Assembly (NCBI RefSeq): GCF_037042905.1
Contig: NC_087250.1
Coordinates: 11,906,001-11,970,000, forward strand
DNA from: Lytechinus pictus
Taxonomy: Eukaryota
Direction of reading: 5' to 3'
DNA: 64,000 nt
Part shown: one piece after another, positions 11,161 to 49,196 of the stretch
Layout of the letters: every line of letters starts with the position of its first letter
Numbering within the stretch: the stretch's first letter is position 1
Notes under the pieces: generated by a model
Seen by the model: only the letters and a program-made list of their open reading frames with translations
The model's database searches: none
Told to the model about the DNA's origin: nothing
Position numbers and translations under genes: made by a program

Positions 11161-11438
11161 AAATAAAGGTTGTGTCCCTAGCCTAATAGAGCCTCTTGAC
11201 TACCTGTTAGCGCGTTGTTAGCGATAAACAGGTTTTTGTGCGGTCAGTAAAGATTTATTTGTTATATAGGGTTTTTCTTGTGTTTCTCAGTGTTTTATAG
11301 ATTTTTTTCCGGGGAAAGGTGGTCATTACTGTCATTTCTAATCTTGTTATCTATTCTCCAAGGATAGATTGCCCATGTTTCACGGCCAGGATATGATCTT
11401 CAGTAATATCCTAGCTACATATAAAATTGTATACTAAC

Positions 11439-11836
11439 CTGTCAGTAAACAAATCATGTCGTGGAGTAGAATCATGGTCTGGGTCGGCTGTCGCCCAGCA
11501 TCGCTTAATGAACATACCAACCTCTCCTACCGAGTCAAGTTGGACTTGAAAGTAGAGCGCCTGGCTTTGCCAGACTTCAGCGTTGTCATCTTCGGGTTCA
11601 TCAAATGACTTGGTCTTGAACCTTGTCATGTACAGCTGGAACTGACCGGAACCCTTGTCGCTAAACTTTATTTCACCGAGCGTTGGTTTGAAAGACTGCC
11701 CAACCTGCGATGTCTTATCAAGACAGCACGAAACCTCAAGCTGCTTCTGATATTCACGGGTGATATCAGTACCAGGAAGAGACCTAGGCTTGTAATAAGT
11801 GATGACATTCGAGAATATAATGGTTGTGTCATTTTC
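11439..11836 (-). CDS. ZP-domain protein gene, exon encoding end of ZP-N, linker and start of ZP-C
   Basis: TTAG acceptor, GTTAGT donor, 398 bp open. Encodes ENDTTIIFSNVITYYKP...LEVSCCLDK...GSGQFQLYM...LYFQVQL...FIKRCWATADP...DLFTD; CWAT is the ZP-C hallmark. Phase 0 to 2. Confidence 0.9.
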
Positions 11837-17696: not shown

Positions 17697-20600
17697 AGGC
17701 GGATCCACTAGGGCCCCCCCCCCCCCTATTGGCGGAGCAAAAAAAAGGAAAAAAAGGGAAAGAAAGAAAAAAAAGGAAAAAAAGGTAAGAGAGAGGAGAA
17801 AAAAGAGGGGGAAACATAAGAGGAAGAAGACGAGTGAATAAAATAAGATGGGGGGGAAGACTTGGAAAATGATTAAGAAAATCTTTCATGTCACTAAAAT
17901 TTTCGCCCGCGCTTCGCGCTCGCACTGGCTTTTAGGTGATTTACATATCTTGTTCAATATGAAGTTTAAATATCAAGTTTGGAAGTCAATATACAAACAT
18001 ATTTCATCTCAGAAATCGAACTTTCATTATTTTGTGTGACTTTCAAATTGATTTTTAAAAAGGGCTCTGTAAAAAAAAATCAGTTTTATGGTCTGAATAT
18101 TAAAATTTTCTGCTCGCGCTGCGCGCTCGCAAATTTTGATTTATCAGGTACCTATTATTTTCTTGTATTCCAAAAAGTTTTTAAAATATTCCTTTTCAGG
18201 TCTGATTGTCAAAACGTATCAGCTAGCGCTGCACGCTCGCATTTTGATTGGCGAGTTATGTATGTCTCAATATTGATTATACAACAAACTACTTAAAATC
18301 CCCTTTTCATGACAGTGTATAAAATATTTAGGCTCGCAATTTGCGCTCGCATTAATGGTTAATAATATATTAACTGATGCATCCTAGTTATAATTACAAA
18401 AGTGCTTGAAATGTCAAGTTTTCAGGCCATCATATCATCAGATTTCGCGCCCTCATTAGGTATTAATGAATAAGATATTCATTTAATAATTGATCTTTTT
18501 TTTTTCATCTTGCGCTTAACAAGAGGAATAGGAAGACAGTCTTCATTTTCATATTATGTCCTAAGGATGTGCCGGTACGTCCTATGTCAAAACTCAAAGT
18601 AATAATAATGAAAATATGAGCTCTTAATTAAGTGCGATCCATATCCACCTCACAATTTTCCTACAAAATTAAGTGCTTGAAATATAGAGCTGAAATTGAC
18701 TCTTTTTTAGATCGGATTATCAAATAGTTTAAGCTCGCGCTCGCTTGATTTTCACGATAAAAGATGTATAGAATGGCTATATTCTATATAGGTCTAAATA
18801 TGACACACGCGCGCGCATGTTTATTCGATACTCAACTTGTTCTCTATTCAAATCATTATCCAGTTTCAGATCACAATATCAAATTTTCTGCTCGCGCTTT
18901 GTGCTCGCATTATTAATGTAGAAAGATCCCCTATTACTCATTCTTTTTATGATATACAAAACATGAATAGAGTGTCCCGTTTTTAGGTCTAAATTTCGAA
19001 AAAAAAATCGCTCGCGCTTCACGCTCGCATCAATTGTTCAGTTATAAAGCTATCTTGTTTACGATTATAAAATTTGATAAAAAAATTATATTCATTATGT
19101 CGAAATAACAATTTTTTCAGCTCGCGCTTCGCGCTCGCATTATTTGATTGCTGAAATATGTAACGTCTTCATGGCTAAGTGGCAGTCCTTAACAGGTACC
19201 TTTTCGATCAGTTCAAAACGCATATGGACATTTTCTGCTCGCGCTTTGCGCTCGCATTATTAATGTAAAGAAGATCCCCAATTACTCATCCTTTTAATGA
19301 TTCACAAAGTATGAATAGAGTGTCTCGTTCAAGTAGGTCTAAATCTCGAAATTTTCCGCTCGCGCTTCGCGCTCGCATCAATCTTTACTATTATGACAAA
19401 AATGTACCTTTGACAAAAATCAAACCTGGTAAAAATAAGAATAAACAACCATGGATCACCCAAGGTATAATTCAATCAATATTCACCCGTAATCGATTAT
19501 ATAAGATATCGCTTAAATCACCAACTCTAGGACATTTAAATAAATACAAGAAATACCGTAATAAATTAACCTCAATAATTCGATTGGCTCGAAGATCGAA
19601 CTTTTCTAATAAAATTGAAATAAATAAGGATAATAACAAAACATTGTGGCATACAGTAAATGAAATGTTAAATAAAAATACGCGTGATTTTAACAATGTT
19701 GAGTTCCTTTTAAACGGGCATAAAACGCAAGACCCTTCAGAAATTGCTAAAGCATTTAATTCTTTTTTTACCAATGTTGGTCCTAATCTTGCATCTAAAA
19801 TTGCAACTAATGCCAATGATTTTTCTACATATTTAGGTAATCATGCCGAACATTCTTTATTTTTTATCCCTACCAATACTCATGAAATCATAGAAATTGT
19901 TCGGTCTTTTAAATCTACTCAATCCAGTGGCCATGACGGTATCAGTGTATGTTTACTTAAAGAAATAATTCATTATTTAGCTTCTCCGCTTTCATATATT
20001 TTCAATTTATCTCTCTCAAATGGAATTTTTCCGGATCAACTAAAAATTGAAAAAATAATTCCTATTTACAAAAAAGAAGACCCTTGCCAAATATCTAACT
20101 ACCGTCCCATTTCATTATTACCCAGTATATCCAAAATACTTGAAAAAATTGTTTACAAACGATTGTACTCTTTTCTGGATACAAATAAATTATTAATCTC
20201 AAATCAATATGGCTTTAGGAAAAATCATTCAACTGACTATGCAATTTTACAATTACATGATCAAATAATAGATTCACTTTCTAAAAATGAACACACCGTT
20301 GGGGTCTTTATGGATCTATCGAAGGCATTCGATACTATGGATCACCATATTCTTTTGTGTAAATTAAAGACTTACGGAATCAGAGGTATTGTTTTATCAT
20401 GGTTTAATGATTATTTATCCAACAGACGTCAGTATGTTAATTTTCATTATAAATCATCCCAAGTTTGTACCGTTAAGTGTGGGGTACCACAGGGCTCCAT
20501 CCTAGGCCCTTTGTTATTTTTAATTTATATGAATGATATAATTAATGCATCACCTCTACTTACCTATGTTCTCTTTGCAGATGACACTAATGTATTTTAT

Positions 20601-22095
20601 TCTCACAAAAACTTAGACATACTTGAAACAATACTTAATCACGAATTAGATAAATTTTCTATGTGGTTTAAATCAAACAAACTCTCCTTAAACATTAACA
20701 AAACAAATTTCATATACTTTAAACACCTTAATTCTAAACATACATTTCGTGGTTCCATTCAAATTAATAACATCAGTCTCATTGAAAAACAAGAGACTAA
20801 ATTTTTAGGGGTAATAATCGATTCTAATTTAACTTGGAACAGCCACATTCATAATGTTAGCACACTAGTTGCCAGAGGTATTGGTATATTATATAAACTC
20901 AAATATTGTCTTTCCCAAAGATCACTATTTATGTTGTACAATTCTTTTATTTTATCACATATTTCATATTGCAATATATTGTGGGGTAATAGCAATAAAA
21001 CAAAAATAGATTCAATTCTGCGCCTTCAAAAAAAGGCACTCCGTATTTGCACCCATTCGCAATATTTAGCTCACTCTGATCCCATTTTTCGGAAACTCAA
21101 AACGTTGAAAATAAACGATATCCATACTTTACAATCTGCCATTTTTATGTACAAATTCTCAACCAATGCTATACCTACATCCTTTCAAAACATGTTTACC
21201 TACAATAGCGACATTCATTCATATCCTACACGTCACTCATCAGACTTTCATTTGACAAACCCGAAAATAATTTTAGCACAGAAAACAATTAGACACCACG
21301 GCCCAGATATATGAAACAACATACCAAATCATATTAAACTCACTGCATCTGTCTTTTCTTTTAAAGCTTCATTGAAAAAATATATTTTATCCAGATATTC
21401 ATAAATCTCTCACCTGCACTTGCACCCACTAGCACTCACTAGCACACACTTCATTTGTCAATTTCTACTTTTTTCCCCGTTATTTGATGATTCGTGACAT
21501 TAATTTTTTTTTCTTACAGACACAATTAATTTCTTAGGTTTCCATGTAGCCCTTCCCTTTTTTGGCTGCTATGCTTCAAGCATATATTTGCTTATATAGT
21601 TTGCCTCTGCATTTTACTTATTATATATATTTTTTATATATTGTATTTATGTCTTTCTCCAGTCACTACATATAAGATTGTCACTTGGTTATGTACTTTA
21701 TGCTATATTATGATTATGTCTCAAGCATTGTAAATTTGTTTTGTATATATTCCAATAAATGCAGAAAATCCTGCAAAAAAAAATTGTTTAGTTATATACA
21801 TATTTTGTTTAAGTTACAAAAAGTGCTTAGAATTTCCATTCTTTTGATAAAAATGTCATAAATTTCATCTCTCGCTTCGCGCTGGCATTATTTGATTTTG
21901 TAAATATTTATAACGTCTTCATGGCTAACAGCATGCAGTCTTTAACAGGTACATTTTCCATCAGTTCATTTTCTGCTCGCGCTTCGTGTTCGTAGTAATT
22001 ATTTAGTTGCATACACATCTTTATCAGGATAACAAACATTGCCCAGAATGTTCAAATTTAAGGAAAAAATACATAAGATTTCCAAAAAATTTGAT
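17697..22095. mobile_element. Non-autonomous DNA element with CTCGCGCTTCGCGCTCGC sub-repeats (copy 2, interrupted by a LINE)
   Basis: Begins TAGGCGGATCCA; collinear with 90-1974; the repeat unit GCATCA|ATTGTTTAGTTATA is split by the LINE. Confidence 0.7.
19383..21782 (+). mobile_element. 5'-truncated CR1/L2-group (Crack-like) LINE, RT region
   Basis: PWIT, NYRPISLL, QYGFR, DLSKAFD, GVPQGSILGP, FADD, KFLGV motifs; no endonuclease. TGA at 21312 replaces the conserved Trp (GPDI*NNIP) and the frame continues to about 21404. AATAAA near 21754 and an A-tail. Confidence 0.9.
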
Positions 22096-27528: not shown

Positions 27529-28538
27529 GAGGTTTCTCGATGGCTCACATCCAAAATGGTGAAGTGTTGATGCAGATAATCCAGTAAATACCAGTAAACC
27601 TACCAACACTTTGGTTTTACATACTGAATTTTAGTCGTCAATCGTATTAATATTTTCGATCAAAATTTTTAATAAATTTGGAACTACATATAATGATTCA
27701 TCAGCTCTGGGCTAAAATATGACTAAAACGACCAATGCAGTCATGTTTCTGTCATGTTTTGTTTTATTGTTAATTCATGTTTTTTTTTTCATGATTAAGC
27801 CCTTCCGAATTACTGGTTTCTATGTTTTTTTAAGACTTCCAAGCTGTTCTTTTACCAGTTTACGGGCATTTTCAATAGATTTACTGTGTTCTTGAATCGG
27901 CCCCCGTTCGAGTTGCGAGAACTCCCTCTGGTAAAAAAAAATAGTATGTGATATCGCCTTACAACTGTTTACAAATGCTAATAACAGATTTCCGCACGCT
28001 AGTAACTGTCGCCCCCCCCCCCCCACAAAAAAAATGCAATGAAATTTCGAACAAGTAGAAAATTTGTTTGCGACAAGAAAAACTGTTTGCAACAATGAAA
28101 AGGAATGAAAAGGATTTTTTGGCAACCTCTTACGAACCTTTTGCAACCTTTTACGAACCCTGGCGAAAGTTCGAATTCGCTATACGTTCGCAAGCATTCA
28201 CCGCTCAGTGAGACGCCCCTTTTCAATAATGTCGCACTCCAGTACTACGTAAACATTTGAACATATACCTAGGAGGTACGACGTATTTACAATTGAAGGA
28301 CTAGTTGTTATGCTATTTCTTTTGTCTCTCCTGAACATCTGTTAAAAACTGATATTTGTTGACAGTTACGGCATCAAATATTTCATTATTTCACACCTAT
28401 CGGCCTACATAAATTCTGAAAACACATTGATTTGTTTTTATGTACTAGGTCTAACCATGAAACACTACACATATCGCATCGGCCAATTATAACTGTAGGA
28501 TCACTTAATCTTTTCTTTTCACCACTCCCTCATCTTAA

Positions 28539-28815
28539 AGATAAATACTAGTTGTGGTAACGATTTCAAAATTGGTTCGAAAAGAATCCAATGAAATTAC
28601 CACCAAAGTGTTTGTATGCATAAAAAAATATGTGCCAAAAAGCGCTGAAAGAAAATGCCTAATTGCTGAGAAATGAGCAAAATAGAAACGGAATTCCATC
28701 AAATGGAGGGTATTTTTCGAAGCAATAGTAATACACTGTCCCGCATATTTGTTTCTGTGTAAGTGATCATCAGAATTATTCATTTTGAGCTAAGATTTCA
28801 AGATTTTTTTAAAGA
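28539..28815 (+). mobile_element. Truncated TTAA/AG MITE (inverted copy of the split element at 33110-33240 + 53011-53269)
   Basis: TTAA|AGATAAATACTAGTTGTGGTAACG; reverse-complement match to 53011-53269. Confidence 0.7.
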
Positions 28816-29695
28816 CCAGTTTGGAATCAAACCGATGCTGTTTTAATACTAATTGGTGTTGTTTAAACACATATCTGGTGTTGGACCAAACGAAACTGGT
28901 GTTGTTTAACACGTCTCTGGTGTGGACATATATAGATTCTGGGCTGGTGTTAAAACAATACCAGAGTGTTTGCAGTGCAGGTGCGCACCTCCCAGACACA
29001 ACCAAATATTATTCACTCCACAGTTTTTGCTTTTTCACAATAGACATTTATTGCAACTAAACGGGGACGGATTCAAGAAAACTGTTAAAGGGGAATAAAA
29101 CCTTTGGAACAAGTAGGCTTGTGTTGAAACAGAAAAATCAAAAAATAAGATAAAAGAAAGTTTGAGAAAATCGGACAAATAATGAGAAAGTTACGAGCAT
29201 TTGAATATAATTGCAATGGAGATCCTCCCATTGGCAATGCGACAAGGATGTGTGATGTCACATGTGAACAACTTTCCCTTTGATGGACTATAAAATACCC
29301 TCAAAATGTATCTTTTTTGCTTTTTCTTATGGTGATACAAACTCTTTATCCATGATGTATTCTTTAAAAATCTGTATTACATGCCCTCCTATAGAAAGAA
29401 CACATGATCTACTGATAGATGTGATATTAGAGGCAATTAAGTGAAATATATACTAAAGTAATGGGGAGAGTTGTTCACAAGTGACATCACACATATTTGT
29501 CGCATTGCCAATGGTAGGATCTCCATAGCATTAGTGATTACAATAGTAGTTAATGGATAGACCTCATACCAATTTTGGTGACCTTTGACCTTTGACCCAT
29601 GACCTTTGACCCCAACTTCCGGTCACTGTTGACCCCGTGACCCCACCTTCCGGTCAATCATGACCTTTGACCTTTGGGTACGCGGTAAACAGGAA

Positions 29696-30080
29696 ATTGG
29701 ATAATGGAGCGCGGGAAGCGATTTTAATTGGATAATGGAGCGCGGGACGCGAATTTAATTGGATAATGGAGCGCGGGACGCGATTTTAATTGGATAATGA
29801 AGCGCGGGACGCGATTTTAATTGGATAATGACTCCGCGTGGGGACGCCATCTTAATTGGATAATGACTCCGCGTGGGGACGCCATCTTAATTGGATAATG
29901 ACTCCGCGTGGGGACGCCATCTTAATTGGATAATGAAACGCGGGACGCGATTTTAATTGGATAATGACTCCGCGTGGGGACGCCACGCTTCAACCCGGAA
30001 ATGATGGGGGTGAATCTTAAAGAAAGAGTAAAAAGCAGCGCGTGCTATAAAACCCGCCAACTTGGACACCCGGCGCATTC
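29696..30080 (+). promoter_or_regulatory. Predicted promoter in Polinton left arm: 9x ATTGG repeat array, TATA box, Inr (mirrored at about 31770-32155 on minus)
   Basis: Nine ATTGGATAATG copies spaced 31 or 35 bp, with GCGCGGGA motifs; TATAAAA at 30046-30052; GCATTC about 30 bp downstream. Confidence 0.55.
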
Positions 30081-30138
30081 TGGACCTCGGACTAACCAGA
30101 ACAGCTCTGCCGCAGGAACACCAATTTATCTACATGCC

Positions 30139-30282
30139 ATGTTGATAACCGTGTGGATGTTGTTTGCGCTTTGGAGAGAGCCGTACATAGGTTTTGAATT
30201 TTGGAGGAACTGGGAGAAAGTGTGGGAAGCGTATGAAGAGGAAAGGAAGAAAGGTATTTGCCGGTCCAAAGGTGAATCATGA
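30139..30282 (+). CDS. Putative 47-aa Trp-rich Polinton microprotein (mirror copy 31567-31710, minus)
   Basis: First long ATG-ORF after the TATA/Inr: MLITVWMLFALWREPYIGFEFWRNWEKVWEAYEEERKKGICRSKGES; no homology recognised. Confidence 0.3.
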   Translation: MLITVWMLFALWREPYIGFEFWRNWEKVWEAYEEERKKGICRSKGES

Positions 30283-30500
30283 GTCAAACGCAGTGGAGCA
30301 TCGAGGACGAAGCCATGCTTCGTCTCCTTCTGGAGCGAAGGAGGAGAGCAACGGAGCGGCAAAGGCAGGCCAGAGCAGAGGTGGTGGAGAGGATGCGGGA
30401 AGAGAACATCGAGGATGAAGAACGGGACGCGAGGTCTGATATGGACGCGATGGAGGGTCATTCCAACGTGGATGAACATATTTTCCTTGAGATTATATGA
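30279..30500 (+). CDS. Putative 73-aa charged helical Polinton protein
   Basis: ATCATGA start overlaps the upstream stop (ATGA); Arg/Glu-rich, purine-rich; stop lies just before the 10-bp array. Confidence 0.45.
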   Translation: MSQTQWSIEDEAMLRLLLERRRRATERQRQARAEVVERMREENIEDEERDARSDMDAMEGHSNVDEHIFLEII

Positions 30501-30511
30501 AAGCATTGATT

Positions 30512-30888
30512 AATCCGTAAACATCCGTAAGAATCCGTAAGAATCCGTAAACATCCGTAAGAATCCGTAAAAAATCCGTAAGAATCCGTAAAAAATCCGT
30601 AAGAATCCGTAAACATCCGTAAGAATCCGTAAAAAATCCGTAAGAATGAGTAAGAATGAGTAAACATCCGTAAGAATCCGTAAGAATGAGTAAGAATCCG
30701 TAAGAATGAGTAAACATCCGTAAGAATGAGTAAGAATCCGTAAGAATCCGTAAACATCCGTAAGAATCCGTAAACATCCGTAAGAATCCGTAAAAAATCC
30801 GTAAGAATGAGTAAGAATGAGTAAACATCCGTAAGAATCCGTAAGAATGAGTAAGAATCCGTAAGAATGCGTAAAAATCCGTAAGAAT
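30512..30888. repeat. 10-bp tandem array (GAATCCGTAA / ACATCCGTAA / GAATGAGTAA); shorter mirror at about 31149-31337
   Basis: Read directly; the mirror lacks 188 bp at the junction TCTTACG|ACGGAT near 31207. Confidence 0.95.
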
Positions 30889-30981
30889 CAAAGTACCTTC
30901 GCGCGCGTTTCATGATTACGTATAATTACAAGTTTGAACGTTAATTTTCTTCATTTCCCAACAAATAATCATCGAGTCAGC

Positions 30982-31068
30982 ATGAATATATTGGATATGT
31001 CCAACCGTTACGCTTGTTCACGATGCGATAAAACTTTTAGTAGGAAATATAACATGCTGACTCGATGA
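30982..31068 (+). pseudogene. Truncated C2H2 zinc-finger ORF spanning the palindrome spacer
   Basis: MNILDMSNRYACSRCDKTFSRKYNMLTR*: Y-x-C-x2-C-x3-F-x5-M, cut before the His pair where the right arm starts. TATAATT at 30921 and TCATTT at 30951 lie upstream. Confidence 0.7.
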
Positions 31069-31348
31069 TTATTTGTTGGGAAATGAAGAAAATTAACGTT
31101 CAAACTTGTAATTATACGTAATCATGAAACGCGCGCGAAGGTACTTTGATTCTTACGGATTTTTACGCATTCTTACGGATTCTTACTCATTCTTACGGAT
31201 TCTTACGACGGATTTTTTACGGATTCTTACGGATGTTTACGGATTCTTACGGATTTTTTACGGATTCTTACGGATTTTTTACGGATTCTTACGGATGTTT
31301 ACGGATTCTTACGGATTCTTACGGATGTTTACGGATTAATCAATGCTT

Positions 31349-31570
31349 TCATATAATCTCAAGGAAAATATGTTCATCCACGTTGGAATGACCCTCCATC
31401 GCGTCCATATCAGACCTCGCGTCCCGTTCTTCATCCTCGATGTTCTCTTCCCGCATCCTCTCCACCACCTCTGCTCTGGCCTGCCTTTGCCGCTCCGTTG
31501 CTCTCCTCCTTCGCTCCAGAAGGAGACGAAGCATGGCTTCGTCCTCGATGCTCCACTGCGTTTGACTCAT
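31349..31570 (-). CDS. Mirror copy of the 73-aa ORF in the right arm
   Basis: Identical translation in the ORF track. Confidence 0.45.
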   Translation of the reverse strand: MSQTQWSIEDEAMLRLLLERRRRATERQRQARAEVVERMREENIEDEERDARSDMDAMEGHSNVDEHIFLEII

Positions 31571-33402
31571 GATTCACCTTTGGACCGGCAAATACCTTTC
31601 TTCCTTTCCTCTTCATACGCTTCCCACACTTTCTCCCAGTTCCTCCAAAATTCAAAACCTATGTACGGCTCTCTCCAAAGCGCAAACAACATCCACACGG
31701 TTATCAACATGGCATGTAGATAAATTGGTGTTCCTGCGGCAGAGCTGTTCTGGTTAGTCCGAGGTCCAGAATGCGCCGGGTGTCCAAGTTGGCGGGTTTT
31801 ATAGCACGCGCTGCTTTTTACTCTTTCTTTAAGATTCACCCCCATCATTTCCGGGTTGAAGCGTGGCGTCCCCACGCGGAGTCATTATCCAATTAAAATC
31901 GCGTCCCGCGTTTCATTATCCAATTAAGATGGCGTCCCCACGCGGAGTCATTATCCAATTAAGATGGCGTCCCCACGCGGAGTCATTATCCAATTAAGAT
32001 GGCGTCCCCACGCGGAGTCATTATCCAATTAAAATCGCGTCCCGCGCTTCATTATCCAATTAAAATCGCGTCCCGCGCTCCATTATCCAATTAAAATCGC
32101 GTCCCGCGCTCCATTATCCAATTAAAATCGCTTCCCGCGCTCCATTATCCAATTTCCTGTTTACCGCGTACCCAAAGGTCAAAGGTCATGATTGACCGGA
32201 AGGTGGGGTCACGGGGTCAACAGTGACCGGAAGTTGGGGTCAAAGGTCATGGGTCAAAGGTCAAAGGTCACCAAAATTGGTATGAGGTCTATCCATTAAC
32301 TACTTACAATATTCAAATGCTCATAACTTTCTCATTATTTGTCCGATTTTTCTCAAACTTTTGTTGATCTGTTTCTTCGATTTTTCTGTTTTCATACAAG
32401 CTATCTTGTGCCAAAGGTTTCATTCTCCTTTCATATATCACAAATGCCCTTCAAGCGACAATGAACAACTGGAAGGCCTTTGTCGAAAATTGCTGAACCA
32501 GAATGACAGTTCCTTACTATGTTTAGGAGCGGACGAAAAATTGCAAATACGTTTTTTGTCTACGGCGGTGGAGGACGAAACTTTGCATTTGCAATACTTT
32601 AACATCCCAGTTGCAGATGCAAAAAACACTCTCTATTGTGGAAAGAAAAAAGGAGTTGGAGTAAATAATATTTGATTGTGTCTGGGTCGGTGTGCGCGAG
32701 AGTGTGTTTGGGTGGGTTTGGTAAACGTTTGTGTCTTCTGAGCCGACTTAACCATCTACATGTCCACATATTTATCTTGATAGATTTAAACTTTAACATC
32801 TGTGTAAGTCTGACAAATACTAATGAATATTAAACACATGGCAAGGAAAACACCAAAATACAACTGTTACGTTTGTAGCATAAATATATGAAATAAACAA
32901 GTTACGTACGATTTGGGAGATGTGTGTTTAAAATCAAATAATAATCAGTCAATACTAAACAAGGCAAATACAGTTTTGAAAAAAATGTATTATCAATGTT
33001 TTTTTCCGATATCAGTTTGTTGGAATGTAACAACTATGTTATGTGTAGATTTTAATAACTTGTACGATGGGTTTATTCACATGAAAGAAACAAAGTGAAT
33101 AGCTATTAAGAATAAAAGACAGTAGTCGCAGCAAACAATTATTTCATGAGAAAGTCTTTTAAATCAAGGTTAATTGTCAAAATATTATCATACACCTATA
33201 TCTGGTACATTGATATAAACTCATCTTTGTAAAATCAAGAGCATAGGCTTTATTTTTAAATAAAGATAAAAGTCAAATGTGACCTCTGCTAACCTCGTTT
33301 TTAGAGGTCAATGACCTTAAGGTCAACGACCTTAAAATATCCGAAAATATATGTTTTTCATCATTAGTTCATAATAAATATGGTTATAATGAAAAAAATG
33401 AT

Positions 33403-39748: not shown

Positions 39749-42700
39749 TTACACTCGCGACAATGTGTCTGCAATAATGTTGTCTTTTCCCGGTAGATGT
39801 CTAATGTTCAAGTTGTACTCTTGGAGCAGTAGACTCCACCTTGTAAGTCTTTGATTTTTGTTTTTCATCTTACTTAGAAACGTCAAAGGATTATGATCTG
39901 TCCATATGTCCAATGCATGTTGAGATCCACTCACATACACTTCAAAGTGTTGCAGTGCAAAGATTAACGCCAAAGTTTCCTTCTCCACAGTGGAATAATT
40001 TCTCTGACTGCTCGAAAACTTCCTTGAGAAGAACGATATGGGCCTGTCTGTTCCCTGTTCATCTTTCTGCGTAAGAACAGCTCCGGCACCCACATCACTA
40101 GCGTCAACCATCAGAGAGAATGGCTGACTAAAATCTGGAGCCACCAGTACAGGATTGGTAGATAGGAGTGCTTTCACCTTGTCAAAAGCACTCTGACAGT
40201 CACTGGACCAGATGAACTTCACCTCCTTGCGTAGTAGATTGGTCAGCGGGGCGACGACATCAGAGAAGTTATGGCAGAATCGTCTGTAGTAGCCTGCCAT
40301 GCCAAGAAACCTCATCAGTCCCTTCCGGTTGGTTGGAGTCGGGAACGCCAGAATAGCTTCTACCTTCGCTGAGAGTGGTCGAACATGACCTGAACCAACA
40401 ACGTGACCCAAGAAACTAACAGTAGCACCTCCAAACTCACTCTTTGCCAAGTTGACTGTCAATTTGGCATCAGACAATCTCCTGAACAAATCTCTAATTC
40501 TTTGTACATGAACTTCCCAATCTTCACTATACACAATCAAGTCATCTATGTAAGCTTCACAGCCTTCAAGACGAGAGACAAGACTATTCACAAGTCTTTG
40601 GAATGTAGCCGGCGCGTTTTTCATACCGAATAGCATCACAGTGTACTGGAATAGGCCTTGGTGTGTAGCAAATGCAGAGATTTCTTGCGCTCTCTTAGTC
40701 AACGGAATCTGCCAATAGCCTTTAAGCAGATCAAATTTGCTCACATACTTCGCCTTTCCTATACGGTCAATACAGTCATCTACGCGCGGTATCGGGAAAG
40801 AATCGGTCTTTGTACTCGAATTGACTTTTCTGTAGTCAGTACAGAAACGATATGACTTATCCGGTTTCGGAACTAAGATGCATGGTGACGACCATGCGCT
40901 GCTACTTGGCTCGATGATGCCATTCTGCAGCATGTACTCTATTTCTTTTTCAAGATTCTTCTTCTTTACTGGGTTAACACGATAAGGCGCCTGCTTGATT
41001 GGGGCGGTATCTCCCACATCAACATCATGTTCAACAACATCAATACGAGATGGGATATCTGCAAATAACTGCGGATACTCATTCAACAGCTCTTTCACAT
41101 CCCTCCTCTCCTTCTCAGACAAGTGGGTTAGTTTGTCATTGATGTGTCTTAGAACTTCTGAATTTTTCAATTTCACACATGGTTCATCTCTCTCAATGTT
41201 ACACATCTCTTCACTTTCATCATTCAGCTCAGATTCTACAGCACTCAACACTGGTTGTGCTCTCTTTTCATCATCTCTTCGAACATAAGCTTTTATCATA
41301 TTCACATGACATACACGCTTTCTCTTTCTTCTATCTGGAGTTTTGACGACATAGTCAACATCACCAACTTTCTTCAGAATGGTATACGGTCCAGTAAATC
41401 TAGCCTGCAAAGCATTACCAACTACTGGTAACAAAACCAAAACCTCATCACCTGCCTTGAAATTCCTTTCCTTGGACTTCTTGTCATACCAAGACTTCAT
41501 TTTCTCCTGAGAATCAGACAAATTCTTCTTAGCAACTTCACAAGCACGATGCAATCTCTCACGGAAAGACGATACATAGTCCAACATATTCACATCTTCC
41601 TCATCTGACAACAACCTTTCACTCAACAACCTGAGGGGTCCACGAACTTCATGTCCATACACGAGCTGAAATGGGCTGAAACCAAGAGATTCTTGAACAG
41701 ATTCTCTCAAAGCAAATAGCAACAATGGAATTCCCTCATCCCATTGTTTCTCTGTCTCCAAACAATATGTTTTGAGCATGTTCTTGAGTGTCTTATGACA
41801 TCTCTCAAGTGCTCCTTGCGATTCAGGATGGTATGCACTAGAAACTACATGTTCAATCCCTAACTGCCTGAGCACTTGCTTAAAGACTTTCGACATAAAG
41901 TTTGATCCTTGATCAGACTGAACGGTACGCGGTAATCCTACAGTCGTGGAAAACTTGATCAGCGCCTTGCTCACATTGTTTGCGGTGATGCGTCTAAGTG
42001 GAATCGCTTCGACATACCTGTTACTTGCGCACATAATGGTAAACAGGAATTCATTACCTGCTTTTGTCCTCGGAAGCGGACCTACGCAATCTATGATAAT
42101 TCTTGCAAACGGTTCATCGAACGCTGGCACTGGTTTTAATGGCGCGACTGGTATTTTCTGATTCGGTTTACCAACTACCTGACATACATGACAATTTCTG
42201 CAATAGTTTGCAACATCCTTTTGTAAACCTGGCCAAAAGAAATGAGAAAGGATTTCCAAACTTCATCAGCAGGAACATCTATCGGCCTCCACTTTCTCAT
42301 CAAAACACCTGACTTCGTATAATAACAAACAGGCACGGTCAATGCCTCCTCCTCAGAGATCGCTCTCTCAAACATGGATACTAACTGAGGATCTTTTTGT
42401 TGCTCCTCCAACAACTTACTCTTACTTATCGGCATTGGTTCACATTTATTTTTCTCTTCTGTACGTTGAGTTTCTCCTGCACCCTCATTCACATTTGATT
42501 CACATTCATCATCAACCAAACGACAAAAGAAATAATCTCCCAAGTTAACCTCATCTAGCTCACTAGACTTCGATTCAGACTCTACTTTCTTTGCCATCGA
42601 ACGAGTTACAGCACAAGACGGAAACACAGTAGGAAATTCTGCAACCAACTGCTCTGTTTCACTACTCTCACACGGAATATCACACAACTGGACATGGCAC
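39749..42700 (-). pseudogene. pol: Pol: integrase, then RT, then RNase H; two lesions
   Basis: CRNCHVCQ, DCVGP, SDQGSNF, YHPESQGALER, GPY; FDLLKGYWQ, YIDD; DAS, EKE, TDH. Frameshift near 42685; the His-His half of the integrase HHCC motif is missing near 42255. Confidence 0.9.
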
Positions 42701-44194
42701 AACTTTATCACCAGCAAGATCATTCCCTAAAATGATGGAAACATCTGCCATCGGAAGTGATGGTCTCACAGCTATTTTCACACTGCCAGAAACAAGGTCT
42801 GATTTCAAGTCTACCACATGAAGGGGTGCTTTTACAAAGCCATCTCCTATTCCTTGGAGCAAAACACTAGTTCCAACACAAGATTTCTCACCAAAAGGCA
42901 ACACACTCTCCAAAATCAAAGACTGAGAAGAACCAGTATCACGCAACACTTTCACTTTTCTTGCTTCGACACTACCAGCTAGGGAAACATATCCTACAGA
43001 AACAAACGGTTCATATTGCTTTTTCACTTTCTCTAAGTTAACTGGCTCAATCCTACTCTCTGAACTTAGCAAATTATTCACAAATGCATTTGGATGTGCA
43101 TTACTTGATTCACTTGTTTCTCCTTTAAGTGTAGGACACTTTGCTTTAAAATGACCAACCTTGTGACATGCATAGCATTTCTTTTCTTGCTCGTCATCTT
43201 TAGATTGTGATTTTACTTCTTTCTTGTTGTGTGCTGAAGCACCATTTTTGTTTTTGTTTTTCCACTTTCCAGATTTGTTTGTCTCATCTGATTTTTTGTT
43301 TGTGATTTTGTGCGTTAGCGCATAATCATCTGCAAGCTTCGCTGCTTCATTAAGCGTTCCTATTTGCTGCTCTTCAAGATGCAACCTAGCATCGAAATGC
43401 ACACTACGCTTAAACTCTTCGAGAAGAATTATTTCTCTAAGCTTATCAAAGCTATCTGCATGGAGTGACGAACTCCATCTATCAAACAACTGTTGTTTGC
43501 GCCTAGCAAACTCAAGATGAGTTTCGGTCTCATCTTTGCGCGTTTTCCGAAATTGTTGACGATACGCATCCGGTACAAGCTCATAAGCACGCAACACTGC
43601 TGCTTTAACAACGTCATAACGACCCGCATCATCAACTGACAAAGCTGAATAAGCATCTCGAGCTTTACCCTTCAACTGAGATCGTAACAAGTGTGACCAT
43701 TTTTCTTGCGGCCAACTCAAACTAACAGCTACCTTTTCAAAGTGAAGGAAATATTTCTCTATCTCCTCCCCCTCCTGAAAAACGGGAACCATTCGAACAT
43801 GTTTCGCAACATCAAAATCAGACTTTACTTGCCTAATTTCTTCTCGTTCTCTAGCATTCTCATGCCCCCTTCTCAAAACTACTTGTTCTCGTTCAAGTTC
43901 AACTTTCGCTATCTCTAGTTCCAACTCTTTCAAACGCAATTTCTCTGTCAAGTCCACATTCACAGACTCAATCTGAACCTTAGATAAAGCTTCAAGTGGC
44001 AGAACATCTTCCTCTTCCACTAACCACTGAATTACAGCTTTCAGAATTTCTAATTTACGCCAAGTATTCCTTACCTCAGCAACCTGGTAATGATGAGCAA
44101 TCTCCAAGAGATGAACCTTCTTCAGAACCAGCAACTTCTCAACACTGGGAGAATCAACGAAATCATCCAAAGAAAATTCCGCCATGGTCAACAA
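42680..44194 (-). CDS. gag: Gag (capsid/SCAN-like, CCHC knuckle) fused to aspartic protease
   Basis: YFLHFEKVA..W..W; LEEFK...AAKLADDY; CYACHKVGHFKAKC; LRDTGSSQS; ILGND. Ends at a frameshift. Confidence 0.88.
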   Translation of the reverse strand: MLTMAEFSLDDFVDSPSVEKLLVLKKVHLLEIAHHYQVAEVRNTWRKLEILKAVIQWLVEEEDVLPLEALSKVQIESVNVDLTEKLRLKELELEIAKVELEREQVVLRRGHENAREREEIRQVKSDFDVAKHVRMVPVFQEGEEIEKYFLHFEKVAVSLSWPQEKWSHLLRSQLKGKARDAYSALSVDDAGRYDVVKAAVLRAYELVPDAYRQQFRKTRKDETETHLEFARRKQQLFDRWSSSLHADSFDKLREIILLEEFKRSVHFDARLHLEEQQIGTLNEAAKLADDYALTHKITNKKSDETNKSGKWKNKNKNGASAHNKKEVKSQSKDDEQEKKCYACHKVGHFKAKCPTLKGETSESSNAHPNAFVNNLLSSESRIEPVNLEKVKKQYEPFVSVGYVSLAGSVEARKVKVLRDTGSSQSLILESVLPFGEKSCVGTSVLLQGIGDGFVKAPLHVVDLKSDLVSGSVKIAVRPSLPMADVSIILGNDLAGDKVVPCPVV

Positions 44195-45414
44195 AAGACC
44201 CCTAATCTTTAACGCTGAAAAGACTAGAAACAGCTAAAGAAAACCTTTAATTCTTAGCCAAGACAATAACCAATATGGTTATCACAGTTGAAAATTATAT
44301 CAATAACATAAGAAAATGTCAACCTGACCTGGCTGACCCTGTATATATGACCTCAACCTACAGAAACGGTAACCTGACTCGGTCACCCCAGTTGAAAATT
44401 TTTCCAACCACACTGTCAACTTGACTCCAGTCGACACTGTCAGTTCCCATCAACCGACACAGCAACAACAAAAAAATGGTTAACCAGTTGAAATATCATC
44501 AACCCAAATTTCATTCAACACTACGTGAACTAAACACATCGCACAGCAAGACACACTGAAATACATGGAATTGCCTCATGGGACAAACAGCACGCCATAC
44601 TCTACCGTGTGCGCCACCACACAGCGTCATACACAACACACTGACAGCGATATCCACACACTGGCATTACATCTACGTGTACACACACCCATGCAAATGT
44701 CTAATGACAATCCTCACGTTGAATACGATTGCACAATACATGTACGTTCATGCGACTTTGCCGCGCCGGCATTATACGGTATACGGAACTTCGATACAAC
44801 TTACGCCGAGAGTTCTGGTTCGACTCTCACCAAGCCCCCACTGTTACGCGGGGGAATTGACTCCGGACATGCCCCCACTGTTACGTTTGCTGGTCCGGAC
44901 AAGCTCTTCCTATGACCTGTCTTGGACAAACTCCTACGTAAACCTCCTGAATCCTGTTTTCCATTCAGACAATCATGAACTAGAAAACAAGCCACGCTGT
45001 GTCAAATCGTTTAAAACACAGTTTATTTACAAAATGTACACATGACGATTCAGATTCACAAGTCCGTTGTTCACATAGCGATATATCCTTTTTCTAATCT
45101 TCTCTCCAGACCCAAAACACATATTATTATCTCGTCACATCACTCAATTCATCTCAGCAGAAAAGGTGCGTGAACATGATTCACAAGGAGATTCAGAGAG
45201 TGACGAAGAGTTTGAAGATGCTGATACGCGTGAAGATGAGGAGCAAGAGTACTCCGATATGTCAGCAGATTCCCCCAAACTACCGAAGGATGGGAAAAAG
45301 TTCGCCAAGGGTAAGCGGAAACAAAAAATCAGGAGCAAACCAGCCAAAAAGAAATAGGAAGCTGCTTCCGATTTCTGACAATAACAGAGTGTAAATAGTG
45401 TAAATAAATCACCT

Positions 45415-48400
45415 ATGCCAGGAATAAAAAACAAATACTGCAACTTGATTAGTTTGAATGTTAGAGGTATCAGAAGTAAAGAAAAAAGAGACACAATCCT
45501 GTTATGGAGCAAGCATCAGAAAACAGACATATTGTTATTACAAGAAACTTATTGGACAGATAATATTTTGAAAATCATTCGAAATGAATGGAAAGGGCAA
45601 GTTTTTTGTTCAAATGGATCTAATCATGCCAGAGGAGTCGCCATTCTTATTTCAAAAGATTTACCAATAACTTTCAATAACATAATTTATGGTCAAGAAG
45701 GACGGATGATTATGTTAAATAGTATGATTAGTAATTGTAATCTATGTATAGTAAATATTTATGCACCCACAGAAAAGAAATACAGAGAACGATTCTTCAA
45801 AAAGCTTTATAGGTGGATCGAGTCGAACAGACCTCTAGATAGCGAGTTAGTAATAGGTGGAGACTTTCATTCCATCCTCTCCCCAACTAAAGACGTAAAA
45901 AGAAATCCGAATACTTATTATAAGACACCACACAATCTTAAAGCTATTATCAAACATTTTGATTTATGTGATATATGGAGACGTTTTAATCCAAACAAAC
46001 GACAGTTTACTTGGAGAAATGTATCTTTAGATTTGGCATCACGCCTTGATTATTGGCTGGTAAATAAGAATCTGAAAGCAAAAATAATGATGTGTGATAT
46101 ACGTCCATCTGTACGTTGTGACCACAACGCTATTTTTTTAAGGTGTTGATAGGTAAAGTGGAGAAAGGTCCAGGATTCTGGAAATTAAATACGCATATTC
46201 TGAAAGATGATGTGTATAAAAGTAAAGTAAGAAAAATTATTAGAAACATTGAAAATATGAATCTTAGTTTCTCTGAAAGATGGGAACTTACAAAGATTAG
46301 ATGTCGTGAATTTACACAAACATACTGTATTGGAAAGAAGCATAAATCAAAAGAATCAAAGACAAGCTTAGAAGAAAGATTTGCTAAGATAACTAGGAAA
46401 ATTGATGAACAAGGTAACATTGATGATGTGACTAGAAAAGAGTACCTCTGTATTAAAAGTGATTTAGATAGACTGTATAAAAGATATTGTAAAGCAGCAA
46501 GTATACGAGCTAGAATCAAATGGCTAGAAAAGGGCGAAAAAAATACAAAATATTTTCTGAGTCTAGAAAAGAAAAACGCCCAGAAAAGAAATATAACTAA
46601 AATACGAAAAGATAATAAGATTATTACGAAACGAGTACAGATTCTAAATGAGGTTGTTTCTTTTTACAAAGAACTATACGCCAGTAAACATATACGAAAA
46701 GAAGATATTGAAAGATATTTTGTAGGTTCCGTTGTAAATAAGTTATATGAAACAGACAAAGAAAAATGTGAAGGACTGTTAACATATTCAGAATGTCGAA
46801 TTGATGCTTTTAAGATGAGCAAAAACAAAAGTCCGGGAGCAGACGGTTTACCCGTCGAATTCTTTTTCGAGTTTTGGGACGATATTTAATTTATGTTGGT
46901 CAATGCTCTAAATGAAAATTGTAGTAATAAGGTTATGTCAAAAACCCAACGGTTAGGAATTATTACGTTGATTCACAAAAAAGGACAGATTGAAGATTTG
47001 AATAACTGGAGGCCAATAACCTTGTTAAATTACGACTACAAAATAATGGCGGCTGCCTTATCAAACAGGTTACATAAAGTGTTATCAAAACTTGTTCATG
47101 AAAATCAGGTAGGTTACATAAAAAACAGAATGAGTGGTTTTAATATTAGACTTACGCAAGATGTTTTTGATTATATGAAAAAGTACAATTTAGAAGGTGC
47201 CTTAATGTTAGTTGACTTTCGGAAGGCATTCGACTCCGTGGAATTTGATTTTATTGAAAGCTGTTTGAGTCATTTTAATTTCGGCGAAGACTTCCGATGT
47301 TGGGTTAAATTAATGTATGAAAAAGTGGAGAGTTCGATACTAATCAATGGTTGGAGAACGCAAACATTTCAGATCTGTAGATAGAGGCATAAGACAAGGC
47401 TGCCCCCTATCGGCAATGTTGTTTATCTTGGTGGTAGAAACCCTAGCAGAAAGAATCAGAAGAAATGACAAAATTAAAGGAATTCTATTTGGACACAACA
47501 AAAGAACAGAATTAAAAATCTTACAATATGCAGACGATACATCTGTGTTTTTGAGAGAGAAATCGTCTATGCAATATATTATGGAAGAATTAGATAAATT
47601 TGGACATGTGGCCGGGCCGGTTGTTAATAAAGACAAAACAATGCTGAAATGGTTAGGCTCTACGGAAACTTATTGGAATTTTGATAAATATGGTTTGAAG
47701 TGGACGAAAGGTTGTATTAAATATTTAGGAGTTCATATAGACCATGACCTAGATAAGGTTGTGAAATTGAACTGGGAAACCAAATTACAAAAGATACAGA
47801 GAATCCTGGACAATTGGAGGAAAAGAGATCTCACAATTATAGGAAGAGTCCTTATCATCAAGACTCTACTTGTAAGTCAAATAATTCATTTAATTATGTT
47901 TTGTCCAGTTCCTCACCAGATAGTAAAGAAACTGGAGAATATAATTTACCATTTTTTATGGAACGCGAAAGTTGACAAAGTTAAGAGAATGACAATTGTA
48001 AAGGAATATGAGGATGGTGGTATTAGAATGATCGACATTCAGAAATTAATACAGAGTTTCAGATTGAAATGGTTGGCGAGAATAGTTGACGATACAAGTG
48101 GTTATTGGACAGATTTTGCTTTATTGAATTTGGAATCAGTAGGGGGTGTCAGACTAGTTCTTAACCGTACTATGGATAATCACAGATAGAAAAATGGTTT
48201 GTTAACAAATTGCCAAAATTTTATGTTGAGATTATAAAATCATGGTCACACTTGAAAGAATCCACAAAAAAGATGATTTGTTATCGAACACACAGATTCT
48301 ATGGTATAATAAATATATTGTATATCATAATCAACCATTTTTCTATAGAGATTGGTACGCTAGCAAAATAATTTTTCTGAAAGATATTTGTATCGAAGGA

Positions 48401-49196
48401 AAATTTGTATCTCTTACGAAACTGAAAGAATATTTTGAATCCGAGAAAACAAAAGCAAGAGCCCTGTTTGATTATTCTAAACTACAAAGGGCGATACCGA
48501 AAAATATGGTTGAATGATTTAACAGATGGTATTACGTTGGACATTCCAAAAATACCACTGAAGGGAAAAGACAAACAACTTAGGTTCTGTTCCAGCAAGC
48601 TATTTTACCACATTTTATTAACACATGACAAAACAAACGACGCTCCTACATATTGGGCTGACTTTGCCGATAGTCCTATAAATTGGAAGAATGTCTTTCA
48701 GAGAAATTTGAAAAATATAGGGGAAAACAAATTGAAACAATTCAATTTAAAATTGTTGTATAACTTAATTCCTACGAAGAGGATGTTGTTTTTATGGCAA
48801 TTGGACAATGATGATAAATGTGAAGTTTGTAATATCAAAGAAGATTTAATTCATGCTTTTTTGTATTGTAGTTTGAATATGCATTTCTTTTATAATTTAT
48901 TCATAATGATCAAAAATGTGTATGATGTAGACCTTTGTTTTCATGTCGATATTTTGTTGAAAAATTACAAAGAAAAGAAGATTGATGATATTATAACAAT
49001 AGCACTTTGGAGTATTTATAAGATGTTAATTTTTAGAAACTTACATAGAAAAGAAGAAAGAGAAAATAAATTATGGTTTACTTTTGTCAGAGAATTGAAA
49101 TTAAGATTAGATATCAATAAGATCATGAAGATTCTGAGGAAAAGAAGAAAGAAAGAAATGTATAATTTGCCTGTTGCTTTGGAAATGTATCTATGA
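45415..49196 (+). pseudogene. L1/Tx1 ORF2 (APE endonuclease, RT, C-terminal zinc motif), disrupted
   Basis: SLNVRG, LQET, NIYAP, GGDF, SRLDY, DH; KSPGADG, WRPITLLN, DFRKAFD, RQGCPLS, YADD, KYLG; CEVC..EDLIHAFLYC. Several frameshifts plus an in-frame stop at 46887. Confidence 0.92.

Follow-up and report, generated by a model that had tools for sequence, protein, structure and literature searches.

A palindromic 2.76-kb insertion with Polinton/Maverick-type ends in the genome of Lytechinus pictus

Anatomy of the palindrome

We analyzed 64,000 nucleotides of the genome of Lytechinus pictus (NCBI RefSeq assembly GCF_037042905.1, contig NC_087250.1, positions 11,906,001 to 11,970,000 of the forward strand). 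This whole stretch is called the window below, and all coordinates are counted from its first letter. The window is animal DNA rich in retroelements. The element studied here, a 2,760-bp almost perfect palindrome, occupies positions 29545-32304, where it lies within a host repeat resembling a MITE (a miniature transposable element with inverted repeats) and is flanked by a 6-bp target-site duplication (TSD). The features of the locus are listed here, with the evidence for each in parentheses (ORF, open reading frame; TRF, Tandem Repeats Finder).

29087-29538, no strand: left part of the receiving host repeat, MITE-like; its right part lies at 32311-32431 (inverted pair and word depth)
29539-29544, no strand: left TSD copy, TACAAT (sequence and empty-site joints)
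29545-30984, + strand: left arm of the palindrome, 1,440 bp (inverted repeats and base-by-base comparison)
29545-29550, + strand: AGT-AGT reiteration at the 5'-AG terminus, mirrored at 32299-32304 (sequence)
29579-29665, + strand: subterminal TGACCT(T) repeats, with two 31-nt units that both contain CCGGAAGT on one strand; mirrored at 32184-32270 (TRF and repeat families)
29695-29985, + strand: about 8-9 tandem units of 31 bp and 35 bp, with a mirror image at 31864-32154 (repeat search and TRF)
30046-30052, + strand: TATAAAA box facing inward, mirrored in the right arm (sequence)
30279-30500, + strand: charged 73-aa ORF (P0001), with a mirror copy at 31349-31570 on the - strand (ORF list)
30512-30889, + strand: 10-bp tandem array, 37.4 copies of the units AATCCGTAAG and AATGAGTAAG, against 18.4 copies in the right arm (31148-31337) (repeat search and TRF)
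30982-31065, + strand: truncated start of a gene for a C2H2-finger/acidic protein (ORF and homology)
30985-31052, no strand: unpaired center, 68 nt (repeat search)
31053-31057, no strand: fold-back junction, CATGC (sequence and contig divergence)
31053-32304, - strand: right arm, 1,252 bp, reverse-complementary to the left arm except for 188 bp that it lacks (repeat search and comparison)
32305-32310, no strand: right TSD copy, TACAAT (sequence and empty-site joints)

A repeat search of the window resolved the palindrome into outer inverted-repeat arms of 1,097 nt each (29545-30641 and 31208-32304) and inner arms of 155 nt each (30830-30984 and 31053-31207). When the arms were compared base by base, a single mismatch was found among 1,252 paired positions (at 29753, an A where the partner arm has a T), and the inner 155 nt pair throughout. 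The left arm is longer by 188 bp (about 30642-30829; the exact place is ambiguous), and this extra sequence lies wholly within the 10-bp tandem array. Thus, the dimensions given in a preliminary description of this DNA (2,760 bp in all, arms of 1,440 and 1,252 bp, and 68 bp unpaired) are borne out by the repeat search, as are the two arm differences that it reported, one substitution near 29753 and one 188-bp indel, by the base-by-base comparison. The element starts with AGTAGTTAATGG and ends with CCATTAACTACT, and the claimed AGTAGT and ACTACT termini are read directly in the sequence. Its terminal 26-mer has two matches in the window, at the two element ends, against an expectation of 0, and no further copy of any arm piece was found elsewhere in the 64 kb.

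From the outside inward, each arm carries AGT-AGT, the TGACCT(T) repeats with the 31-nt units, the 31/35-bp repeats, TATAAAA, the 73-aa ORF, and the 10-bp array. The subterminal region is made of TGACCTnTGACC repeats plus two CCGGAAGT motifs; these are candidate binding sites, the spacing of TGACCTnTGACC being like that of nuclear-receptor DR1 (direct repeat 1) sites and CCGGAAGT being ETS-like. The TATAAAA box may function as a promoter. Searches with the 73-aa ORF returned neither a homologue among proteins of 40-128 aa nor a Pfam family at E ≤ 0.001, and its coding status is doubtful because a contig from another organism (organism C, see below) diverges within the ORF at 30400. A search of ORFs and Pfam domains found no genes for pPolB, integrase, ATPase, protease, or capsid within the element. 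The earlier characterization of the element as gene-less is nevertheless inexact, since the element keeps a TATA-like box, one 73-aa ORF per arm, and the truncated zinc-finger gene. An Rfam match to MIR1023, a family of plant miRNA precursors, at the palindrome center (30925-31112) was rejected as a hairpin look-alike rather than a miRNA gene (51.8 bits versus a gathering score of 90).

Insertion into a host repeat

The host repeat is about 580 bp long and has its own inverted ends of about 84 nt (29087-29170 and 32348-32431). Public sequencing runs were compared with the window, namely, X1 (organism A), X3 (organism B), X8, and the RNA run X23; the runs are shallow (95 to 1,032 million letters) and possibly of other species. 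The host repeat is present in very many copies: its word depth is extreme in X1 (up to ~1e5) and high in X3, and its coverage by RNA reads in X23 is good. Loose ends occur at 32431 in X1, X3, and X23. Many variants of its sequence exist, some of them with CG or TA states at the target site.

Copies of the host repeat that are free of the insertion join position 29540 to 32307, skipping 2,766 nt (2,760 + 6, with a 5-nt ambiguity). This empty-site joint was present in three of the four runs (1 contig in X1, 2 contigs in X3, and 79 RNA reads in X23), while none was seen in X8. The empty site is paralogous, being formed by other host-repeat copies, and has a single TACAAT. Because the skip at this paralogous site is exactly 2,760 + 6, the palindrome is a real insertion with a 6-bp duplication. 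The clean TACAAT duplication noticed earlier in the sequence is thereby backed independently. Nearly identical arms and an intact duplication point to a young insertion, in agreement with the earlier impression drawn from the few differences between the arms. Gene conversion between the arms could also maintain their likeness, and the date is therefore soft.

RNA reads of X23 cover the arms with 0-13 reads per bin, mostly 90-95% alike. These reads are too few and too ambiguous between the arms, so that no expression call is made.

The truncated zinc-finger gene and its family

The ATG at 30982 opens a 28-codon ORF consisting of 25 homologous codons followed by 3 codons and a stop from the right arm. 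A 50-residue stop-to-stop query matched four L. pictus proteins (of six candidates) with 88-92% identity over the first 25 residues, and it is only as far as residue 25 that the ORF of the window aligns with L. pictus proteins of about 225 aa. A HMMER scan with one of the four matched proteins collected 154 proteins at E ≤ 0.001, 25 of them at E ≤ 1e-10. These include a clear family whose members have about 200-230 residues and begin with a single C2H2 finger, to which an acidic linker and a conserved, helical C-terminal domain are added; the L. pictus entry “uncharacterized protein LOC135157287” (225 aa) belongs to it. Pfam detects the finger alone, in 17 of 20 members, and the ESM Atlas returned generic zinc-finger clusters only.

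Among metagenome contigs, 500 pattern matches yielded four confirmed family loci with distant relatives of the zinc-finger gene, all on contigs of 1.1-2 kb; because of these lengths, the gene neighborhood of the loci is not visible. Three of them (L001, L003, and L004) extend upstream of the zinc-finger gene. In L001, a clear array of the AATGAGTAA type stands 5' of the gene (112-377), L003 has 2.1 copies of a 12-nt unit containing the AATGAGTAA motif (345-369), also 5' of the gene, and L004 has a different tandem array in this position (736-1004). Since the AATGAGTAA motif is a unit variant inside the 10-bp array of the window, the array-plus-gene module seems to be conserved, and our guess is that the array might provide binding sites for the finger protein. 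The fourth locus, L002, has TTGACCT repeats and 30-mers with ATGCAAAT 3' of the gene (823-1121), which recalls the subterminal TGACCT repeats of the element.

Five L. pictus gene models (P0002, P0003, P0004, P0005, and P0201) start with 25-92 residues of the zinc-finger protein of the element. Four of the five go on as unrelated host proteins (hydroxylysine kinase-like, trichohyalin-like, sialyltransferase-like, and RFC3-like), whereas the remaining one, P0004, is an internal duplication. Two accounts are conceivable: host genes receive first exons and promoters from the element family, or the gene models have been merged wrongly.

A longer parent form and the fold-back breakpoint

Contigs that cross the breakpoint in a longer, parent-type arrangement were found in two of the three contig runs. 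A 463-nt contig of X3 follows 30840-31057 with 0 differences and continues with 245 nt of unlike sequence, and a 223-nt contig of X1 follows 30934-31057 with 4 differences and runs 99 nt beyond. Both depart at 31057, 5 nt into the paired right arm. In these contigs the reading frame across 31057 remains open and continues like the L. pictus proteins; therefore, a longer form with the whole zinc-finger gene exists. The recovery of a parent, which had been proposed as a check, succeeded to this extent: the longer form is seen as short contigs in X1 and X3.

The departure point coincides with a 5-nt inverted microhomology, in which CATGC (31053-31057) complements GCATG (30980-30984, overlapping the start codon). 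Read in this way, the palindrome corresponds to the left 1,513 bp of the parent joined to the reverse complement of its first ~1,435-1,440 bp, and the original product, prior to the 188-bp array loss, is computed at 2,948 bp. The element is thus a defective copy of an uncommon kind, in which the left end of a longer element is folded back on itself.

Organism C has a contig form that departs from the arm at the position corresponding to 30086, roughly 35 nt beyond the TATA box, and another that spans 30052-30400. This fork hints at an inner border of the terminal inverted repeat (TIR) of the parent near 540 bp. If the TIR border lies there, the right arm beyond it could only derive from the left end.

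Superfamily assignment

Polintons are characterized by a 6-bp TSD, a 5'-AG end, and long TIRs (about 100-1,500 bp on a 13-25-kb body), as well as by short 1-3-bp terminal tandem repeats (PMC4196379), of a kind that suits slide-back or jump-back in protein-primed replication. The element has TACAAT on both sides, a 5'-AG terminus with the inverted complement CT at its 3' end, and AGT twice at each end; a 3-nt repeat is expected at an end by chance in about 1 in 64 cases, and it was noticed post hoc. In adenovirus, a 3-nt reiteration serves jumping-back (PMC5175343), and Bam35 has a reiteration as well. The element is all inverted repeat by construction, and the organism C fork at about 540 bp is the sole hint on the TIR length of the parent. 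Sea urchins harbor Polintons (Polinton-1_SP). The element therefore shares with Polinton/Maverick elements (polintoviruses and adintoviruses) the TSD length, the 5'-AG end, the doubled AGT, and a Polinton-bearing animal host; its inverted ends are long as well, which its palindromic build would bring about in any case. It differs from them in its size (2.76 kb versus 13-25 kb), in being wholly palindromic, and in having no pPolB, integrase, protease, ATPase, or capsid gene, and its one gene remnant encodes a zinc-finger/acidic protein foreign to known Polintons.

Few superfamilies produce duplications of 6 bp, and the other candidates considered were rejected. Dada elements insert into tRNA or snRNA genes. 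The region 28500-33300 has no tRNA gene and no Rfam family at the gathering score, and the target is a MITE-like repeat. Galileo makes 7-bp duplications. For foldback transposons (Drosophila FB, Galileo, Tetris, and sea urchin TU), which have been linked to Mutator or P and also occur in sea urchin, duplications of 8-10 bp are described. Foldback transposons resemble the element in their long, modular, repetitive inverted ends, small center, and lack of a transposase. The element differs from them in its 6-bp TSD, its AG...CT ends, and its arms, which are part repeat and part unique promoter/ORF sequence from one end of the parent. The IS3EU/GingerRoot elements, which like Ginger2 are integrase-related cut-and-paste transposons, likewise make 6-bp duplications in marine-animal hosts, but their ends are given as TA..TA (“always,” although TG..CA also occurs occasionally), with TIRs of 100-150 bp, in contrast to the AG..CT termini found here. 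Ginger2/TDD elements would need a 4-5-bp TSD and TGTNR termini.

Because the 6-bp TSD, the AG end, and the AGT-AGT reiteration fit Polinton/Maverick, and because the other 6-bp superfamilies are excluded, the element is best filed there. This placement, made from end marks only, has in our estimation close to an even chance of being right.

Origin of the element

In our favored interpretation, which we consider about evenly balanced against all others taken together, the locus records a recent insertion of a non-autonomous palindromic derivative with Polinton/Maverick-type ends, which would have been formed by copy-back and integrated as a mini form. A nascent or broken strand from the left end of the parent would have stopped at 31057, where its last 5 nt could pair with their complement 73 nt upstream (GCATG/CATGC) and leave a 68-nt loop. 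Extension of the folded strand back to the end would produce a self-complementary strand with both replicon ends, and second-strand copying would convert it into a linear duplex of about 2.95 kb with two identical complete ends. Such a duplex could be a substrate for the polymerase and integrase of a helper while encoding nothing useful. Integrase supplied in trans would then insert the molecule and produce the 6-bp duplication, and afterwards the right arm would lose 188 bp through array slippage and one base would change. We infer the copy-back route, the integration as a mini form, and any later mobilization in trans. Snap-back is the simplest route, and a hint in its favor is the organism C fork near 30086, which looks as a TIR border at about 540 bp would.

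Snap-back or copy-back is the kind of event to be expected for a linear replicon that is copied from its ends by strand displacement. Incomplete adenovirus genomes with large inverted duplications are snap-back/copy-back defective genomes. Hairpin or panhandle defective interfering genomes are described for RNA viruses (PMC6140465). With such genomes the element shares the combination of one end with its reverse complement, the short self-complementary join, the retention of both replication ends, and the loss of the coding body; it differs in being chromosomal, with a TSD, and in being known here from sequence alone. No description of a palindromic, foldback, or copy-back Polinton derivative was found in the literature searched, which included the available portions of PMC6431247 and PMC4196379 and did not cover Repbase. 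The most specific form of the proposal, a snap-back defective genome of a sea urchin Polinton-type virus that was made in protein-primed strand-displacement replication and integrated by the integrase of a helper, appears distinctly doubtful to us.

Several results speak against a copy-back derivative of a Polinton. The terminal 26-mer had 0 hits in metagenome contigs and the terminal 19-mer 0 hits in viral contigs, and of 183 pattern matches to the zinc-finger family in IMG/VR viral contigs, 0 were confirmed. Among 58 of the 63 window ORFs of at least 95 aa (the five left out comprise three within the array and two mirror copies), no Polinton genes were found, and the sole rve domain in the window belongs to a Gypsy pol. 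Accordingly, of the earlier Polinton claim, the ends and the TSD stand, as they match the marks in the literature, whereas the same ends are tied to pPolB and integrase nowhere in the collections or in the window. The 3' end of Polintons is written “TC-3'” in one published passage, versus CT-3' here. No known Polinton protein corresponds to the zinc-finger/acidic protein, and the AlphaFold model of one family member (P0006; predicted local distance difference test score, 73) had 0 matches at E ≤ 0.001 in BFVD and PDB beyond the finger itself. The runs also cover the arm unevenly: X1 and X3 contain the array and the zinc-finger module and have zero depth over the terminal 120 bp and over 30087-30510, and X8 covers 29629-30400 without the inner module, so that the arm looks modular and may be a mosaic of modules. 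The fold-back junction was not seen in X1 or X3, both of which carry the parent junction; the depth of 1.66 in bin 31041-31146 of X3 is all explained by the parent contig (10.3 x 17/106), and X1 is similar. Finally, if the TIRs of the parent were at least 1.44 kb long, a plain internal deletion, occurring in place or ahead of integration, would yield the same structure without copy-back.

This last possibility is the core of a rival explanation, in which a full-length element with TIRs of at least 1.44 kb was inserted here and then lost its interior, from codon 25 of the left zinc-finger gene to the inner right TIR, by using the 5-nt microhomology; the palindrome would never have been free or mobile. 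The collapse in place, already named as an alternative in the preliminary description, is a serious possibility, although we put it somewhat below an even chance. It agrees with the missing fold-back junction and with the lack of a second copy in the window; the 5-nt microhomology suits end joining equally with strand switching, and the literature gives Polinton TIRs of up to 1.5 kb and, for butterfly polintons, of about 2 kb with genes inside (preprint). It demands, however, a parent TIR that reaches the start codon of the zinc-finger gene, for which there is no evidence, and in organism C the arm splits into two forms at about 30086, only some 540 bp in from the terminus. The missing junction itself weighs little because the runs are shallow and maybe of other species; on this footing it might weakly point to a rare mini form. 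A further rival is a false palindrome produced by a chimeric long read with a fold-back, since fold-back chimeras occur in long-read data. An assembly artefact of this kind is highly improbable here: the two arms reach exactly the same terminal base, with a perfect 6-bp duplication just outside them, the flanks when joined to each other give precisely the host repeat's empty site, the arms differ by the 188-bp array indel and one base, and the 5-nt homology at the join is too short for assemblers to bridge.

Whether the palindrome collapsed in place or arrived as a mini form is a question separate from that of the superfamily. As to the latter, the element may belong not to Polintons but to an unclassified foldback-like TIR family of marine animals, with the zinc-finger/acidic gene and its array as cargo and another transposase that makes 6-bp TSDs. 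This seems unlikely to us, yet it has several points in its favor. The zinc-finger gene recurs with an upstream AATGAGTAA-type array in L001 and L003, two of the three loci with an upstream region; the family is widespread on short contigs, where it was never seen beside Polinton genes; L. pictus gene models join its first exon to at least four host genes, as many small dispersed copies would; and modular, repeat-filled long TIRs are typical of foldback elements, including those of sea urchin. On the other hand, the characterized foldback elements differ in duplication length and are linked to Mutator or P, the other known 6-bp superfamilies end in TA..TA or TG..CA, the insertion lies outside tRNA and small-RNA genes, unlike those of Dada, and the AGT-AGT reiteration marks protein-primed ends.

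Other features of the window

The remainder of the window contains further retroelement sequences. A Gypsy-type retroelement on the - strand (39749-44233) has a pol with reverse transcriptase (RT), RNase H, and integrase, and an upstream ORF (gag) with a SCAN domain. A frameshifted non-long-terminal-repeat retrotransposon (L1-like) on the + strand (45385-49196) has an endonuclease of the apurinic type and an RT divided between two frames, together with a zf-RVT tail. A second RT ORF of 681 aa lies at 19269-21314. An ORF on the - strand (11414-11836) with a ZP-C (zona pellucida) domain (E 8e-11) is probably a host-gene exon.

Implications

What has been deduced about how Polintons replicate comes, to our knowledge, almost entirely from their genes. 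One end copied back at a tiny self-complementary site and then integrated with a clean 6-bp duplication is the expected trace of end-initiated strand-displacement replication with occasional strand switching. If the element were tied to a parent with pPolB and integrase, it would show from a natural case that Polintons have a free linear replicative form, and it would also be evidence for parasitic mini genomes of virus-like elements in animals. Should the snap-back Polinton interpretation be true, the locus would be a fossil showing that Polintons are copied as free linear molecules, starting at the ends, and that they give rise to defective or satellite genomes of the hairpin type, which are still able to integrate. 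If the parent is not a Polinton, the palindrome would mark an unclassified family of marine animals with a 6-bp TSD, which carries a conserved zinc-finger/acidic gene and an upstream array. Either way, the element would spread candidate promoters and a first exon, which gene predictors join to host genes of L. pictus.

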